The notes under the pieces were generated by a model. The model saw only the letters and a program-made list of their open reading frames with translations. It had not been told where the DNA came from and did no database searches. Of a stretch of 64,000 nt of DNA, positions 9,965 through 58,313 are shown piece by piece. The stretch covers positions 12,027 through 76,026 of the forward strand of contig CAIOFV010000106.1 in the NCBI GenBank assembly GCA_903857665.1, in the 5' to 3' direction. The DNA is from an uncultured Myxococcales bacterium (lineage in GTDB: Bacteria > Myxococcota_A > UBA9042 > DTJE01). The first letter of the stretch is position 1, and every line of letters begins with the position of its first letter. The position numbers and the translations under genes were made by a program.

Positions 9965-10034
9965 GCCCGAGGCGACTCCGTCTGCGGCGAGAGTTTCCTT
10001 CGGAAACCCATCGCCTGCGCCTACGTGCTCGGGC
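9965..10034 (+). repeat. 70-bp palindromic dispersed repeat, copy 1
   Basis: GCCCGAG...CTCGGGC ends with central hairpin GTTTCC-TTC-GGAAAC; lies between the convergent kinase and tex genes. Confidence 0.9.
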
Positions 10035-10037
10035 GGG

Positions 10038-12221
10038 CTACACCTTGTTGCCCAGCCCCTTCGCCGACAGCGATATCCGGCGCCGCGGCAGGTCCACCGC
10101 CAGCACCCGCACCTTCAGCCGCAGGCCGGGACGCGCGACCTCGGACGGCTGTCGCACGAACCGGTCGGCCAGCTCGCTGACGTGGACCAGCCCATCCTGG
10201 TGCACGCCCACGTCCACGAAGGCGCCGAAGGCCGTCACGTTGGTGACGACGCCTTCCAGTTCCATGCCCGGCTTCAGGTCCTCCAGCGTTCGCACGTCGT
10301 CGCGGAACCGCAGGGCCTCGAACTCGCGCCGCGGGTCGCGCCCGGGCTTCTTCAATTCGGCCAGGATGTCCCGCAGGGTCGGCAGGCCCACGTCGCCGAG
10401 TGCGTAGCGCGCGATGTCGATCTTCTCCACGGCCTCCGGGTGGCCCACCAGCGAGGCCAGCGTCACGCCCAGGTCGCGGGCCATCCGCTCGACCAGGCCG
10501 TACCGCTCGGGATGCACGGCCGAGGCGTCCAGGGGATGCGACCCGCCGCGCACGCGCAGGAAACCCGCCGCCTGCTCGAAGGTCCGGGGGCCCAGCCGCG
10601 GCACCGCCATCAGGTCCTTGCGCGACGTGAAGCCGCCGCGGCGATCCCGCTCGGCCACGATCGCGCCCGCCAGGTTCGGACCGATGCCCGAAACGTAGGC
10701 CAGCAGCGCCGCCGAAGCGGTGTTCACCTCGACGCCGACACCGTTGACGCAGTCCTCGACGACCTCGTCCAGGCGCTTCTTCAGGCGCCCTTCGGCCACG
10801 TCGTGCTGGTACTGCCCGACCCCGATGGACTGCGGGTCCACCTTGACCAGTTCCGCCAGCGGATCCTGCAGGCGGCGGGCGATGCTGATGGCCCCGCGCA
10901 CGGTCAGGTCCAGATCCGGAAACTCCTCGCGGGCGATGTCCGAAGCGCTGTACACGCTGGCGCCGGCCTCGCTGACCGCCACCACCAGCACGTCCTTGGC
11001 CCCGGAGGCCGCCAGCGCGTCCCGCACGAACGCCTCGGTTTCGCGGCCCGCGGTGCCGTTGCCCACGGCCACGGCGTCCGGACGGTGCCGGGCCACGAAC
11101 GCCCTGAAGTCCGCAGTGGCCCGGGCCGCGGACGCGTCGCCGCTGTGCGGATACACCGTCACGTGCCCCTGGAAGGCGCCCCGGGCATCCGCGGCCGCGC
11201 ACTTGCACCCGGTACGCAGCCCCGGATCGACCCCCACCACCGACCGGCCCCCGAAGGGCGGCGCCAGCAGCAGCTCGCGCAGGTTCGCGGCGAACACCTC
11301 CACCGCGTCGCGCTCGGCCCGGTCCGCCACCTCGCCCAGGATCTCGCCGTCCACCGCCGGGCGGATCAGCCGGTCGAACGCGTCCTCGACCGCCGCGACC
11401 AGCTCGCCGGCCCAGGGCGAGCGAGGGTCATGGTTCATCCGCGCCAGGGCCCACTCGATCAGGGGGCCGTCGTCCGCTTCCACCTTCACGCGCAGGATGC
11501 CCTCGGCCTCGCCGCGCCGGACCGCGAGGAACCGGTGCGACGGCAGGCGCGACAGGGCCTCCCGGTATTCGTAGTAGCCCTCGAACTTGGTCGGGCCGGT
11601 CGCCTTGGACTTGATGACGTCGGACCGCAGCGCGCCGCGTTCGCGCAGGGTTTCCCGGACCCGGGCCCGGACATCGGCCCGGTCCGCGGCGGTCTCGGCC
11701 ACGATGTCCCGGGCGCCCGCCAGCGCCGCGTCGATGTCCGCCACGGCCTTCGCCGCGTCGTCCGAGGCGTGGACGTAGGCCAGCGCCTCGTTCCGCGGAT
11801 CGCCGTCCCGGGGCTGGGCCAGGATGCGCGCGGCCAGCGGATCGAGGCCGCGTTCCCGCGCCATGCCCGCGCGGGTGCGCCGCTTCGGCCGGTAGGGCAG
11901 GTACAGGTCCTCCAGCTCGGCCTTCGTGACGCAGGCCTCGATGGCGGCCCGCAGCGCGTCGGTCAACTTCCCCTGCCCGGCGACGGACTCCAGGATCGCA
12001 CGCCGACGCTTGTCCAGGTCCACCAGGGCATCCCGGCGCTCGGACACCGCGCGAATCGCCACCTCGTCCAGCCCGCCGGTCACCTCCTTCCGGTAGCGGG
12101 CCAGGAAGGGCACCGTGGCCCCCTCGTCCAGCAGACGCAGCACCGCGCTGATCGAGGACGTGGGCAGGCGCAGTTCGGCGGCCAGGATCGGCAGCGGATC
12201 GAAGGGGGACGCGTCGGCCAT
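10038..12221 (-). CDS. tex: Tex/YhgF RNA-binding transcriptional accessory protein
   Basis: GATVPFLARYRKE, ELEDLYLPYRPKRRT, GVDPGLRTGCK, QDPLAELVKVDPQSIGVGQYQHDV and a C-terminal S1 domain. Confidence 0.95.
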   Translation of the reverse strand: MADASPFDPLPILAAELRLPTSSISAVLRLLDEGATVPFLARYRKEVTGGLDEVAIRAVSERRDALVDLDKRRRAILESVAGQGKLTDALRAAIEACVTKAELEDLYLPYRPKRRTRAGMARERGLDPLAARILAQPRDGDPRNEALAYVHASDDAAKAVADIDAALAGARDIVAETAADRADVRARVRETLRERGALRSDVIKSKATGPTKFEGYYEYREALSRLPSHRFLAVRRGEAEGILRVKVEADDGPLIEWALARMNHDPRSPWAGELVAAVEDAFDRLIRPAVDGEILGEVADRAERDAVEVFAANLRELLLAPPFGGRSVVGVDPGLRTGCKCAAADARGAFQGHVTVYPHSGDASAARATADFRAFVARHRPDAVAVGNGTAGRETEAFVRDALAASGAKDVLVVAVSEAGASVYSASDIAREEFPDLDLTVRGAISIARRLQDPLAELVKVDPQSIGVGQYQHDVAEGRLKKRLDEVVEDCVNGVGVEVNTASAALLAYVSGIGPNLAGAIVAERDRRGGFTSRKDLMAVPRLGPRTFEQAAGFLRVRGGSHPLDASAVHPERYGLVERMARDLGVTLASLVGHPEAVEKIDIARYALGDVGLPTLRDILAELKKPGRDPRREFEALRFRDDVRTLEDLKPGMELEGVVTNVTAFGAFVDVGVHQDGLVHVSELADRFVRQPSEVARPGLRLKVRVLAVDLPRRRISLSAKGLGNKV

Positions 12222-20535: not shown

Positions 20536-21261
20536 ATGGAACGCCGAATCGCCACGGGAATCGCGCTGATGATCGCCCTCGCCCTGCCGGCCCAGGCCTT
20601 CGCGGGCTGGGGCCTGGTGGACCTGGAAATCGGGGCCAAGGGCGGGGCCGGCGGGACGCTGTGGACCAAGCCCACCAGCCAGCCGGCATACCTGATGAGC
20701 CAGGATTGGGCCTTTTCCCAGCGCCGGGGCGGCTGGAGCGGCACCGGCGGCCTGTATGTCCAGTTGCGCCTGCTGAAATGCCTGGGCATCGAGGTCGATG
20801 CCCTGGTCGAAGAGAGCCGGATTCGCGAGACGCCCTGGACGGGTTCCTCCTGGGAACTGACCGCCAAGGCCGTCACCATGCACGTGCCGGTCCTGGTCCA
20901 GGGCCTGTTGCCCTTGCCCGGCGTGCGCATCGGCGTCGTCGTAGGCCCCGAGTTCGTCTTCCCGATGTCCACCTCGGCCCAACTGTCCAACGCACCGCCG
21001 CCCGGCGTGCCGACTCCCTATCCCTTCAAGGTGGACTCGAAGTTCGCAACGTTCCTGACGGTCGGCATCAACATCACTCCCACGATCGGCCACCTCAGCA
21101 TCCCGGTCGACCTCCGGGCTTCGTACAACGTGACCCAGTCGTCGAAGTACGATGACCGCGTCGCGTGGAACAGCCCTGGAGACATCGCCAAGGGCTTCAC
21201 CATCCACTACCAGGACACCTGGGACTTCCGGCTGCTGGTCGGCCTCGGGTACGCGTTCTGA
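20536..21261 (+). CDS. Outer-membrane beta-barrel (porin-like) protein
   Basis: Signal peptide (AQAFA), amphipathic strands and a C-terminal aromatic motif VGLGYAF; GAGGAGG RBS. Confidence 0.7.
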   Translation: MERRIATGIALMIALALPAQAFAGWGLVDLEIGAKGGAGGTLWTKPTSQPAYLMSQDWAFSQRRGGWSGTGGLYVQLRLLKCLGIEVDALVEESRIRETPWTGSSWELTAKAVTMHVPVLVQGLLPLPGVRIGVVVGPEFVFPMSTSAQLSNAPPPGVPTPYPFKVDSKFATFLTVGINITPTIGHLSIPVDLRASYNVTQSSKYDDRVAWNSPGDIAKGFTIHYQDTWDFRLLVGLGYAF

Positions 21262-21333
21262 GCAGGGGCCGGCGGGCTCGGGGCTTGGTGGGCCGGGGGA
21301 GCGGGGTGCCTGACTCCGCGGGCCGGCGCTCGT

Positions 21334-21490
21334 GGGTTACCCAAGTAGATGACGGGCGCGCGGGTGGGGATCGCTACCCGAGGTGGGTTGCGGCAGCATG
21401 TTCGTTCGCGCCTGAACCGCTGCGCAGGCACACCCGTCCCCCGGCCGCGCCGTCCGGTCCCTCGCGATGCCCGGCCGGCCCCTGGGGCTT
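21334..21490 (+). repeat. ~155-bp repeat, left copy (inverted partner at 24470-24627)
   Basis: 21418-21483 is identical to the reverse complement of 24478-24543 (66 nt); similarity extends to GGGT(T/G)ACCCAAG. Confidence 0.85.
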
Positions 21491-24469: not shown

Positions 24470-24627
24470 AGGCCCCGAGGGGCCGGCCGGGCATCGCGAG
24501 GGACCGGACGGCGCGGCCGGGGGACGGGTGTGCCTGCGCAGCGTTCAGGCGCGAACGAACGCGATGCCGCAACCCACCTTGGGTAGAGGGCATCCTACGC
24601 GAAGCCAGACACCCGCTTGGGTCACCC
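24470..24627 (-). repeat. ~155-bp repeat, right copy (inverted relative to 21334-21490)
   Basis: Reverse-complement alignment by eye with the left copy. Confidence 0.85.
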
Positions 24628-24823
24628 GTGCGCGCCGGCCCGCGGAGCAGGCACCCCGTTCCCCGGCCCACCACGCCCCGAACCCGCCGGCCCCGCCCCA
24701 CACCGTACCCGGATCACCCGCGGGAGACTTGTACCCACACCCCAAACAAACCCTATTGAAGTCCGCGTTTTGCAACCCCGCATTCAACCTCATCCCCCGT
24801 CCCCGCCTCTCGCAATCCCCTCA

Positions 24824-30514: not shown

Positions 30515-30584
30515 GCCCGAGGCGACTCCGGCTGCGGCAAGAGATTGCAAACGCAATCCCTCGCCTCCGCCTTCGTGCTCGGGA
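30515..30584 (+). repeat. 70-bp palindromic dispersed repeat, copy 2
   Basis: GCCCGAG...CTCGGGA ends with central GATTGC-AAAC-GCAATC. Confidence 0.9.
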
Positions 30585-30595
30585 TGAGTGGAGTG

Positions 30596-30619
30596 GCCCG
30601 AGGCGACTTTGGCTCGGGC
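30596..30619 (+). repeat. Internally deleted 24-bp mini copy of the 70-bp repeat
   Basis: GCCCGAG-GCGACTTTGG-CTCGGGC. The 20-mer TGGAGTGGCCCGAGGCGACT is duplicated at 30508 and 30589. Confidence 0.8.
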
Positions 30620-32750: not shown

Positions 32751-33134
32751 ATGAGCGACGTGAAGAAGGTTCTGCTGGTGGACGACGACGCGGACCTGGT
32801 AGCGGTCAACCGTGCGGTGCTGGAAAACCACGGGTTCGCGATCGCAACGGCGTACTCGGGCCCGAAGGGCCTGGTGGCCGCGAAGGCCGAGGCGCCGGAC
32901 CTGATCGTGCTGGACGTGATGATGGGGACCAACAGCGAGGGCTTCGACCTGGCGCGCGCCCTGAAGAAGGACGAAGCCACGAAGCACATCCCGCTGATCA
33001 TGGTCACCTCGGTCAACACGACGGTGCCCTTCAAGTTCGAGCCGGACGCGAAGTACCTGCCGGTGGACCGTTTCCTGGAAAAGCCCCTGGCGCCCGAGGC
33101 GCTGCTGAAGGAAGTCCAGGGCATGCTTTCCTGA
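32751..33134 (+). CDS. Single-domain response regulator
   Basis: LVDDD, LDVMM (phospho-Asp), MVTS, LEKP. Confidence 0.9.
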   Translation: MSDVKKVLLVDDDADLVAVNRAVLENHGFAIATAYSGPKGLVAAKAEAPDLIVLDVMMGTNSEGFDLARALKKDEATKHIPLIMVTSVNTTVPFKFEPDAKYLPVDRFLEKPLAPEALLKEVQGMLS

Positions 33135-33206
33135 GTTCCCGCCGGAGCCGCAGTCGCCTCGGGCCCGCTCCGTGTGTTCCCGAGTACCCAGCCCGCGGAG
33201 GTCATC

Positions 33207-45007: not shown

Positions 45008-45077
45008 GCCCGAGCACGGAGGCTGCGGCGAGCGATTGCGCATGCAATCTCTTGCCGCAGCCGGAGTCGACTCGGGC
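45008..45077 (-). repeat. 70-bp palindromic dispersed repeat, copy 3
   Basis: Reverse complement reads GCCCGAGTCGACTCCGGCTGCGGCAAGAGATTGCATGCGCAATCGCTCGCCGCAGCCTCCGTGCTCGGGC. Confidence 0.9.
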
Positions 45078-48812: not shown

Positions 48813-49379
48813 ATGGACTCCACGACCCCCGCCACCGCGGGCGGGTTCGAGCCGCGGATCACCGCCTTCGTGTGCAACTGGTGCACGTACACGGGCGCCG
48901 ACCTGGCGGGCACCAGCCGCCTGCAGATGGCGTCGAACGTGCGCATCATCCGCCTGCCGTGCACCGGGCGCATCGACCCGATGTTCATCACCAAGGCGTT
49001 CGAGCGCGGCGCCGACGGCATCATCGTGAGCGGCTGCCATCCGGCGGACTGCCACTACAACGCCGGCAACTACCACGCGCGCCGCCGCTTCGCGATCTTC
49101 CGCGAACTGATGGACTTCCTGGGCGTGGACCCCAGCCGCATCACGTTCAGTTGGGTGTCCGCGTCGGAAGGCGCCAAGTGGCGCGACGTGGTCAACGATG
49201 CAGTGACCCGCGTCCGGGCGCTGGGCCCGTTCACGGCCTATCGCAACATGGTCGTGGTTCAGGCCACGGCGCCCAAATCGTCCTCGCCCGAGCACGCAGG
49301 CGAAGGCGAGGGATTGCCCATGCAATCTCTTGCCGCAGACGGAGTCGCCCCCGGCGCCTCCAAGGAGGTGACGGCATGA
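48813..49379 (+). CDS. flxD: MvhD-type [2Fe-2S] subunit (FlxD) with a repeat-derived C-terminal tail
   Basis: FVCNWCTY.GAD, RLPCTGR, GCHPADCHY..GN, WVSASEG; position within hdrCBA-flx. Confidence 0.9.
   Translation: MDSTTPATAGGFEPRITAFVCNWCTYTGADLAGTSRLQMASNVRIIRLPCTGRIDPMFITKAFERGADGIIVSGCHPADCHYNAGNYHARRRFAIFRELMDFLGVDPSRITFSWVSASEGAKWRDVVNDAVTRVRALGPFTAYRNMVVVQATAPKSSSPEHAGEGEGLPMQSLAADGVAPGASKEVTA
49286..49355 (-). repeat. 70-bp palindromic dispersed repeat, copy 4, inside the flxD reading frame
   Basis: Reverse complement reads GCCGGGGGCGACTCCGTCTGCGGCAAGAGATTGCATGGGCAATCCCTCGCCTTCGCCTGCGTGCTCGGGC. Confidence 0.9.
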
Positions 49380-50248
49380 CCGAGTTGCGCGAACTGGCGC
49401 GCCGCCTGCTGTCCGAAGGGACGGTCAACGCGGTGCTGGGCTGGGAGGAAGGCCCCCGGGGCGCCCGGCCGGCCTTCGTCACCACCCCGGATGGCGCCGA
49501 CCGCCTGATCTTCGATCACCGCTGCGTGCACAACCTGGCGTCCTACCTGTCCCCCCGGCGCCCGCACCTGAAGCGCCTGGGGAAGGTGGCGATGGTGCTG
49601 AAGCCCTGCGACGCCCGGGCCGTGGCCGGCCTGATCCGCGAAACGCAGGTCCCGCGGGAGAACGTCGTGCTGATCGGCGTGCGCTGCGGCGGCGTCGTGA
49701 CCGACCCCGATTCCGACGCGACGCTGTCGGAGGCGACCGTCGCCGATCGCTGCCGCGGATGCCCCGATCGCGAAGGCAAGCTGGCCGACCACACGGTGGG
49801 AACGGCGGGACCCGGCTTCCCCGGCCCGTCGCACCGCGCCCAGAAGATCGAGGAACTGGCGGCGAAACCCGCGGACCAGCGCTGGGCCTTCTGGCAGGCG
49901 GAACTGGAAAAGTGCGTGCGCTGCCACGCCTGCCGGCAGGTCTGCCCGATGTGCTTCTGCGACCGCTGCCTGGCCGACAAGACCCAGCCCCGCTGGATCG
50001 AGTCGAGCCCCCACGCCCGCGGCAACATGGCGTGGCACGTGGCGCGGGCGATGCACCTCGCCGGCCGCTGCGTGGACTGCGGCGAGTGCGAACGGGTCTG
50101 CCCGCAGGGGATCCCCCTGGGCCTGATCACGCGCAAGATCGCTTCTGTCGTGGCCGAGCGGTATGACTTCCGCCCGTCCGACGACCCGGCCGTGCCCGCT
50201 CCGGTGGGCACTTATCGCATGGACGACCCTCAGGAGTTCATCCTGTGA
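49376..50248 (+). CDS. flxC: FlxC-type Fe-S subunit
   Basis: LKPCD.R, CVRCHACRQVCP, RAMHLAGRCVDCGECERVCP; ATGA overlap. Confidence 0.85.
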   Translation: MTELRELARRLLSEGTVNAVLGWEEGPRGARPAFVTTPDGADRLIFDHRCVHNLASYLSPRRPHLKRLGKVAMVLKPCDARAVAGLIRETQVPRENVVLIGVRCGGVVTDPDSDATLSEATVADRCRGCPDREGKLADHTVGTAGPGFPGPSHRAQKIEELAAKPADQRWAFWQAELEKCVRCHACRQVCPMCFCDRCLADKTQPRWIESSPHARGNMAWHVARAMHLAGRCVDCGECERVCPQGIPLGLITRKIASVVAERYDFRPSDDPAVPAPVGTYRMDDPQEFIL

Positions 50249-57542: not shown

Positions 57543-58313
57543 CTAGAGGTGGATGGGCGCACCGGCCGAGCCGCCGGACGTGTGGCACGAAGCGCAACCC
57601 ACGCCCCCGCTGCCGTCCACGTCGGTCGACATCGTCTTGGTCCAGGTGTTTCCGCCCGCCTGGTAGGTCACGCGGAAGTGCACCATGCCCGAGGGGCCGC
57701 CACTGGTCGCGAAGTTGCCGACGCAGTTGGTGGTGCCCAGGTTCACCGCGGTACCGCCGCCGGCCGGGATCGCGTCAACCACCACGCCGTCCACGCCCTG
57801 GTTGGAGTTGCCGCACTTGTCGCCGGCCGGCCCGTACACGGTGCCCGCGTAGGCGAAGCCGTGGCAGCCGGTGCAGTCCTGTCCGGGCCGCATCGTGAGC
57901 CCCTGGCCGGAAGGCGAGCAGGTGTTGCCCGGGCACGCGAAGGCCGGGGGAGTGCCCGGGTCCGTGGGACCGGGATCCGTGGGGCCGGGATCGGTCGGAC
58001 CGGGATCGGTCGGACCGGGATCGACCGCGCCGGGATCGCTTGCGCCGGGGTCGGTCGGACCGGGATCGACCGCGCCGGGATCGGAGCTCCCCGGATCCCC
58101 CGCGCCCGGATCCGCCTGGGCCAGGTCGCTGCCGGGACCGGAGTCCTCCCGGACGTCCGCCACCGCATCCTGCCCCGGGTCCGTCGGGATCCCGTTGTCG
58201 ATGCCGGACTGGGTGTCCTGTACGTCGGACGTGGAAGAGCTCGAGGACGAGGTGCACGAGAACGCCAACACCGACAACGACAACACCAGCGACACACGCG
58301 AACGGACGACCAT
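57543..58313 (-). CDS. Lipoprotein with 11 xxDPG repeats and two CxxCH (c-type heme) motifs
   Basis: Lipobox AFSC; MRPGQDCTGCH and GCASCH. Confidence 0.75.
   Translation of the reverse strand: MVVRSRVSLVLSLSVLAFSCTSSSSSSTSDVQDTQSGIDNGIPTDPGQDAVADVREDSGPGSDLAQADPGAGDPGSSDPGAVDPGPTDPGASDPGAVDPGPTDPGPTDPGPTDPGPTDPGTPPAFACPGNTCSPSGQGLTMRPGQDCTGCHGFAYAGTVYGPAGDKCGNSNQGVDGVVVDAIPAGGGTAVNLGTTNCVGNFATSGGPSGMVHFRVTYQAGGNTWTKTMSTDVDGSGGVGCASCHTSGGSAGAPIHL
57954..58118 (-). repeat. Coding tandem repeat, 11 x 15 bp (xxDPG)
   Basis: Seen directly in both the DNA and the translation. Confidence 0.9.

Follow-up and report, generated by a model that had tools for sequence, protein, structure and literature searches.

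Insertion of small palindromic repeats into bacterial genes is a known phenomenon, and several families bear on the case described here. Rickettsia palindromic elements (RPEs) are, in the parts of PMC3184786 and PMC5896051 that deal with them, dispersed palindromes of roughly 100 nt that occur both in intergenic positions and in frame within genes (Ogata et al. 2000, 2002). In Coxiella burnetii, an in-frame hairpin repeat of the QMITE2 family is found at the 3' end of enhC and supplies about 33 residues at the C-terminus of the product, and the authors point out that C-termini tolerate such changes (PMC5896051). The enterobacterial RU/ERIC-type repeats, BOX/RUP/SPRITE, and the Bordetella repeat BRE are small open-frame repeats as treated in section 15 of PMC3184786 and in PMC2759123 (Delihas 2007; Croucher 2011; Hot 2011). 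REP/BIME elements are extragenic, 20-40 nt long, carry a GTAG or CGTC head, and are mobilised by RAYT tyrosine transposases (PMC2817692, PMC3733652). We report here an 81-nt palindromic repeat family in an uncultured Myxococcales bacterium, one copy of which lies in frame within flxD, the gene for the MvhD-like subunit FlxD, in a 64,000-nt stretch (positions 12,027 to 76,026, forward strand, of contig CAIOFV010000106.1, assembly GCA_903857665.1) that we call the window. What is new is the family, most notably its 27-codon length and its use of a single coding phase; "RPE-like" denotes a functional class of protein-coding palindromes, not a family by homology.

In our judgement the flxD copy is very probably a selfish, RPE-like insertion into coding sequence, tolerated in a permissive FlxD tail, a passenger and not an adaptation of the Flx-Hdr system. 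The initial annotation had placed a fourth copy of a palindromic repeat wholly within the flxD open reading frame (ORF), just past the MvhD core and starting at 49286; position and peptide both hold, except that 49286 itself falls on the third position of the Ser158 codon and the core begins at the next base. It had also described the frame as open through the copy and still ending in an AGGAGG/ATGA coupling to flxC, which agrees with the sequence and the ORF list: AAGGAGG lies at 49362-49368, ahead of the ATGA overlap of flxD and flxC, and a true stop upstream of the repeat was sought without success, the ORF translation being free of stop codons between 48813 and 49377. The frame stays open and the overlap is kept because the unit is 27 codons long and is read in the family's one coding phase. 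The insertion ends 9 nt before the core of the flxC Shine-Dalgarno sequence; the residues native to the end of the protein (..SKEVTA) are retained, as are that sequence and the coupling. FlxD thereby gains about 20-27 Gly/Ala/Glu-rich residues beyond the MvhD fold; that this tail is translated and neutral we infer.

The boundaries of the 81-nt unit were set from the consensus of 74 flanked copies and from an exact 81-nt insertion in the DNA ligase gene ligA relative to a close relative (G002, see below). The flxD unit has a folding energy of -41.5 kcal/mol (z = -4.07), with its 13-bp inner stem intact. The outer CCCGAG/CTCGGG stem, present in the other three window copies, has gone, since the right end now reads CCCCGG. 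An identical 188-amino-acid FlxD is on record in five other metagenome assemblies, and its tail recurs in a 99%-identical variant (T8A). Over the 171 nt that take in both junctions, the three independent assemblies compared at the DNA level match the window at 100% identity, so the junction is not an assembly artefact, an objection that the initial annotation had itself raised.

Alignment of FlxD with its orthologues from three members of the same genus (G001, G002, and G003) marks the segment, absent from all three, as an insertion and not a native tail. G001 flxD has a short tail and no trace of the element, and the G003 tail is also short. G002 flxD is shorter by exactly 60 nt, a clean alignment gap, and it retains the first 19 nt of the element, CCCG followed by CCCGAGCACGTAGGC, joined to AAGGAGG and read as PEH. 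G003 retains a 14-nt remnant, CCCGAGCACGGAGG, joined to TGAAG and read in another frame as PST. These remnants are the sole exact left-end motifs in the syntenic 12.7 kb of G002 and 6 kb of G003; 13 kb of G001 synteny contain no exact left-end motif, and the chance expectation of the motif with one mismatch allowed is 0.13-0.17 per region. Motif DNA kept across two frames, together with differing end-points, fits two independent internal deletions of one ancestral copy. The comparison thus points to a single old flxD insertion that was later deleted twice, and the remnants and the lost outer stem of the window copy would mark it as old and decaying, not recent. Both deletions end beside short AAGG or GGAGG direct repeats, and replication slippage across the hairpin may lie behind them.

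In G003 (L004, about 1960-1980; L122, 2109-2122), CCCGAGCACGGAGG runs straight into TGAAGTGATGA, and the overlap at the end of flxD is TGATG, in a different frame. The role of the flxC Shine-Dalgarno sequence now appears to have passed to GGAGG from the element itself in that genome.

The window holds four full copies of the repeat that are 77-90% alike. The other three had been called intergenic, and all of them do fall outside gene calls; each folds into a single long hairpin with CCCGAG/CUCGGG as its closing stem. The likeness is well past what chance would give: with up to 3 mismatches allowed, a 32-nt probe had 2 matches versus 0 in 100 shuffles, and an nhmmer profile built from the four copies gave 118 matches at E<1e-3 in the draft genome (G000; 5.04 Mb in 173 contigs, 69.5% G+C, 93% complete). 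The consensus core from 74 aligned copies is CCCGAGCRCGnAGGCGnAGGCGAnGGGTTTCCGnAGGAAACTCTCGCCGnAGnCGrAGyCGCCTCGGG, with cCCG as left and nnnATCCAA as right flank, and tandem arrays have a period of 81-83 nt. Subfamilies differ in the central stem (GGATTGC/GCAATC, GGGTTTCC/GGAAAC, or GGATCGC/GCGATC) through changes on both arms that preserve pairing, and the folding z of copies ranges from -2.5 to -6.7. The repeat is thus dispersed and multi-copy and has hairpin potential, as RPE-like elements do; an Rfam search returned no family at E<=1. Among the genomes compared, only three species of the genus carry the family in abundance: left-end motifs number 104 in G000, 137 in G002, and 54 in G003, against 1 in G001 and a background of at most 10 in 37 further relatives. 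Ten left-end motifs in G000 lie outside full-length matches, most of them in internally deleted or truncated copies, so decay of the repeat is routine in this genome.

The other element of the argument is that flxD is not the only host. With a codon-usage gene finder written for the analysis (3,895 genes, 91% of the genome), the 98 copies at E<1e-6 were sorted into 66 intergenic, 16 internal to a gene call, 6 in a 3' tail, 3 in a 5' head, 6 overlapping a gene edge, and 1 cut by a contig end. The three 5'-head copies were not counted as coding, since they are in other frames and most likely lie upstream of the true start codons. Full-length copies lie within gene calls in 20 of 76 cases, in frame and without interrupting the gene, and the search for further coding insertions that the initial annotation had proposed was thus productive. 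Six hosts are confirmed by Pfam (a transketolase, the NAD-dependent DNA ligase LigA, a B12-binding radical SAM protein, an HD-domain protein, a PIG-L-family protein, and a MarR regulator); RecC (two copies), a RecD-like helicase, and a BamA-like protein were recognised by reading the sequence only. In three of the six Pfam-scanned hosts a domain contains the insert: it splits Transketolase_N and the LigA adenylation domain (DNA_ligase_aden) into two stretches each, and the HD_3 match spans it. At LigA and transketolase the flanking alignments abut in five relatives (G001, G002, G003, G004, and G007), so both inserts are private to G000. The LigA insert is exactly 81 nt (ATGGATGCA, the core, and TGGG), without target duplication, and the MarR orthologue in G002 has an empty site (..GCC joined to AAGGAGAAGACGCCATGA). 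Orthologues of close relatives therefore lack the segment at four loci, flxD, LigA, transketolase, and MarR, and together with the dispersed family and the other in-frame copies this upholds the analogy with RPEs that had been drawn from the flxD copy.

Repeat-encoded C-terminal tails were noted in three further genes, those of a MarR regulator (C159:83794-84369), a radical SAM protein (C10:1977-3257), which has two tandem copies, and an EutN-like protein (C69:69391-69813). The MarR and radical SAM genes, the two for which the downstream flank was read, have AAGGAG and the next start codon directly downstream, as flxD does. An HD-domain protein (C104:89873-91198) contains an older copy with a 1-nt insertion and a frameshift that restores phase 0 midway (RPSTEAAAGGLSMQSPAAAGIDSG).

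All 20 full-length copies in gene calls are read in phase 0 (CCC GAG ...), 11 in sense and 9 in antisense orientation. A test independent of the gene finder gave 15 of 15 in phase 0, for which the chance under three equally likely phases is (1/3)^15, or about 7e-8. The sense-phase peptide is PPEHAGxGDGFPKETLAGDGxASGxS and the antisense-phase peptide LDxPEAxSxPARVSxxNPSPxPARSGG. The four unused frames are stop-free in 71-88% of copies, yet they are never used in coding; two of them are poly-Arg, which explains the single-phase use in part. The initial annotation had suggested that the element is pre-adapted to coding insertion. The 27-codon unit, the single phase, and a stop-free fraction above that of shuffles (71-93% of copies across all six frames versus 55-61% of shuffled copies) favour this, but the step from stop-free to adapted is weakened, since shuffled copies at 69.5% G+C are already open that often.

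We propose that a non-autonomous, hairpin-forming mobile repeat entered the final codons of flxD, at a point just 5' of the Shine-Dalgarno sequence of flxC, most likely in the common ancestor of three species of the genus. The element would spread without target duplication and without a detectable linked transposase; its way of moving we infer. Only at tolerant sites, and in the one phase that can be tolerated, would coding copies survive, and the flxD copy is one such survivor. We regard it as a passenger rather than an adaptation because two sister lineages deleted it without harm to the operon. The site itself is generally permissive, as long unrelated tails are common among homologues: tails of FlxD/MvhD homologues after LGPF are 9-85 amino acids long (median 40) and unrelated, compared with 48 in the window FlxD. 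Orthologues with an equally long and similar tail, which would speak for a native segment, were looked for; long homologue tails proved common but unrelated, and those of the same genus short. The distant orthologue L026 was considered as a carrier of a similar tail and rejected: although the alignment extends to residue 188, the L026 tail, ALAPEAAEAWPEATDNLAAAGASPSSGEEVAS, is of low complexity and unrelated.

Several observations weigh against this proposal. Three-locus trees robustly make G000 and G002 sisters but disagree on the branching order of G001 and G003, so the single ancestral insertion rests on the shared remnants and not on a firm species tree, and dating by the species tree was dropped for the same conflict. 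Only about 3-4 of 68 positions, as counted from the sequences, set the flxD copy apart from its subfamily consensus, and flanking genes show 76-88% DNA identity across the G000/G003 split; so few changes for an insertion predating that split make constraint or gene conversion possible. Finally, two of the four unused frames encode harmless-looking peptides (RPSTQAEATGFRRKLSPETESPRAHP and GWARGDSVSGESFLRKPVASACVLGR), and the strict single-phase rule is not fully explained by avoidance of poly-Arg alone.

A broader view is that the family is specialised for operons and genes, using one phase per orientation, landing time and again right 5' of the next gene's AAGGAG with coupling of translation preserved, and, as a selfish element, hiding in and rewiring initiation regions of downstream genes. 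The order gene tail, element, AAGGAG, ATG(A) is seen also at the MarR gene and upstream of several others, and the core ends at most 30 nt from the next start in 15 of 34 co-directional spacers. We hold this to be doubtful, with perhaps a little more in its favour than any of the alternatives that follow; if it were true, the flxD copy would not be mere junk, and its hairpin might set the flxD:flxC ratio.

Selection might instead act on RNA. REP hairpins protect upstream message against 3' exonucleases. If the flxD copy were kept for a hairpin at the flxD-flxC junction, the peptide would be a by-product; the 13-bp stem, which ends about 27 nt before the Shine-Dalgarno sequence, could shield the hdrCBA-flxD message in this way, or the hairpin could tune the number of ribosomes reaching flxC. 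The intact and stable inner stem is consistent with such a role, as are the few changes from consensus at a seemingly old site, the second copy in the operon leader (45009-45076), and the recurrent layout just described. The hairpin was, however, deleted in G002 and G003 and never present in G001, with the same operon and coupling in all; the outer stem has already been lost in the flxD copy, ribosomes translating flxD would melt the stem anyway, and Rfam holds no match. We therefore think retention for RNA structure unlikely.

Less probable by a wide step, and improbable in absolute terms, is co-option of the repeat peptide as a working part of FlxD, for instance a linker, flexible and acidic, or a tail for docking within the FlxABCD-HdrABC complex. 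Many homologues in other lineages have long acidic low-complexity tails, so such a tail may be useful, and the sense-phase peptide is Gly/Glu/Asp-rich. Against this, the tails of the closest relatives are 19-27 amino acids shorter, MvhD chains of known structure do without such a tail, and the peptide is shared with unrelated proteins (MarR, transketolase, radical SAM, and BamA-like). The FlxD tail is also probably disordered: an AlphaFold2 model from 63 sequences has no secondary structure from residue 153 on (predicted local distance difference test, pLDDT, 51-60), whereas 10-residue blocks of the core have means of 69-94, except 53 for residues 31-40. That the in-frame repeat is an artefact, either a misassembly at the repeat or a wrong stop or frame call, is scarcely credible, for although the genome is a draft in which several contigs (C10, C68, C135, and C152) end within repeat copies, both flanks are syntenic flxD and flxC sequence, the reading frame is free of stops, the junction and the product recur in other assemblies, and same-site remnants exist in G002 and G003.

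Table 1. Features of the flxD locus and of the repeat, with FlxD tails compared across the genus (window coordinates)
Feature	Coordinates	Strand	Details
flxD (MvhD-like subunit) CDS (coding sequence)	48813..49379	+	ATG 48813, TGA 49377-49379, 188 aa; ORF and translation
Conserved MvhD/FlpD fold, residues 16-138	48858..49226	+	Pfam FlpD profile positions 1-123
Full 81-nt (27-codon) repeat unit in flxD	49283..49363	+	CTCG + 68-nt core + CGCCTCCAA
68-nt palindromic core CCCGAG...CCCCGG	49287..49354	+	In frame, residues 159-181, PEHAGEGEGLPMQSLAADGVAPG; phase 0
60 nt (20 codons) missing from closest relative G002	49301..49360	+	DNA alignment, four genus members
Inner hairpin, 13-bp stem GGCGAGGGATTGC / GCAATCTCTTGCC, loop CCAT	49305..49334	+	Fold of 81-nt unit
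flxC Shine-Dalgarno AAGGAGGTGA	49362..49371	+	Sequence; directly 3' of repeat unit; conserved in G001 and G002
flxC CDS	49376..50248	+	ATG overlaps flxD stop (ATGA); Pfam Fer4 and FrhB_FdhB_C
Copy 1 core, GGGTTTCC/GGAAAC stem subfamily, intergenic	9966..10033	-	
Copy 2 core, same family as flxD copy, intergenic	30516..30583	-	
Copy 3 core, intergenic, divergent spacer upstream of hdrC	45009..45076	+	Full-length hairpin, -52.5 kcal/mol
FlxD tail after ..GPFT.YR. motif, window (G000)			MVVVQATAPKSSSPEHAGEGEGLPMQSLAADGVAPGASKEVTA, then stop
FlxD tail after ..GPFT.YR. motif, G001			LVVDPATVPAAKVTSKEVPA, then stop
FlxD tail after ..GPFT.YR. motif, G002			LVVDPVATATGVVPPEHVGKEVPA, then stop
FlxD tail after ..GPFT.YR. 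motif, G003			MVADPATVSAPSTEVK, then stop

The features of the locus are collected in Table 1. The identity of the host protein is clear from its match to the Pfam family FlpD/MvhD (delta subunit of methyl-viologen-reducing hydrogenase; E=8e-51) and to MvhD chains in the PDB (E about 1e-45; 5odc_D, 7bkb_F, and 9sw2_D among others). These chains, of 129-141 amino acids, align to FlxD residues 10-142 and end there. The gene order at the locus reads hdrCBA-flxDCBA, as expected of FlxD. Pfam finds a CCG domain in hdrB, FAD and Fer4 domains in hdrA, and Fer4 in flxC and flxB; hdrC and flxA were called from the codon-usage gene finder and from neighbour genes in other assemblies. The flxC start MTELRELARRLL is kept in G001, G002, and G003.

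Further repeats were noted in the window. The hdrCBA-flxD block is bracketed by two same-orientation copies, copy 3 and the flxD copy, and the left-end motif was not found in the G002 upstream stretch syntenic to copy 3. Right-half partial copies lie at 30589-30619, adjoining copy 2, and at 33113-33169, neither reaching E<1e-3 in nhmmer. Long inverted repeats at 21254-21487 and 24474-24705, around about 3 kb, are unrelated in sequence to the 81-nt repeat; their 70-nt core is 99% complementary and their flanking arms 80-91%. At least nine tandem 15-nt units, CCGGGATCGGTCGGA-like, occupy 57940-58119.

The mobility of the family was considered against two known mechanisms. The Y1 transposase profile PF01797 had no match in G000 (which is 93% complete, so that absence is not final) or in G001, and the Y1 genes of G002 (one) and G003 (three) have no element motif within about 1.5 kb on either side; a RAYT/REP system was rejected on these grounds and on those of length, head motif, and coding copies. 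The ends CCCGAG/CTCGGG are inverted, as in a MITE (a miniature transposable element with inverted repeats), but an origin as a MITE derived from an insertion sequence (IS) was set aside for want of target duplication: there is none at the LigA site and no clear one at the transketolase site. A parent IS with the same ends did not turn up in the incomplete draft genome, in which the only pair of left and right ends spaced 0.1-6 kb apart surrounds a gene that reads in translation as SufS-like (cysteine desulfurase) and not as a transposase.

These results indicate that protein-coding palindromes in the style of Rickettsia are not limited to reduced intracellular genomes, being found here in a high-G+C, 5-Mb environmental bacterium, where members of the family have inserted both into the tail of a subunit of a redox complex and into essential enzymes, within conserved domains. 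They also mean, for annotation, that C-terminal extensions and odd loops in proteins of this lineage can be repeat-derived. The flxD site provides a dated series within one genus, from a full copy through a 19-nt remnant and a 14-nt remnant in another frame to an empty site, and the strict use of one phase is a clear sign, open to test, of selection on inserted peptides. The consequence for Flx-Hdr biology is probably small, and the flxD copy itself is of modest interest.

Among known systems, the likeness to RPEs is one of kind, and homology of sequence is not expected. As with RPEs, a peptide segment is added without breaking the host protein, and orthologues in relatives do without the segment. 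The unit here is 81 nt, compared with about 105-146 nt for the RPEs tabulated in PMC3184786, and the host is of a free-living type with a 5-Mb genome of 69.5% G+C, whereas Rickettsia genomes are reduced and intracellular; coding copies occur here in both orientations, with one phase each. QMITE2 at enhC resembles the flxD copy in being a small hairpin-forming repeat in frame near the 3' end of a functional gene. It belongs to another family in other hosts, and QMITE copies in functional genes are all 3'-terminal, whereas the family described here is also found inside conserved domains; the flxD copy, moreover, stops short of the gene end and spares the Shine-Dalgarno sequence and the ATGA coupling as well as the native C-terminal residues. 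RU/ERIC, BOX/RUP/SPRITE, and BRE are, in the sections of the sources cited above, similarly small open-frame repeats that either extend genes at the 3' or 5' end by fusion or lie within them, but their sequences are unrelated; the exact multiple of three and the single phase in 15-20 coding copies are stated here for the present family. With REP/BIME the element shares a G+C-rich imperfect palindrome, more than 100 copies per genome that are often in tandem, the lack of target-site duplication, and frequent occurrence at operon junctions, but it differs in being 81 nt long, in starting with CCCGAG, and in having a quarter of its full-length copies in coding sequences.

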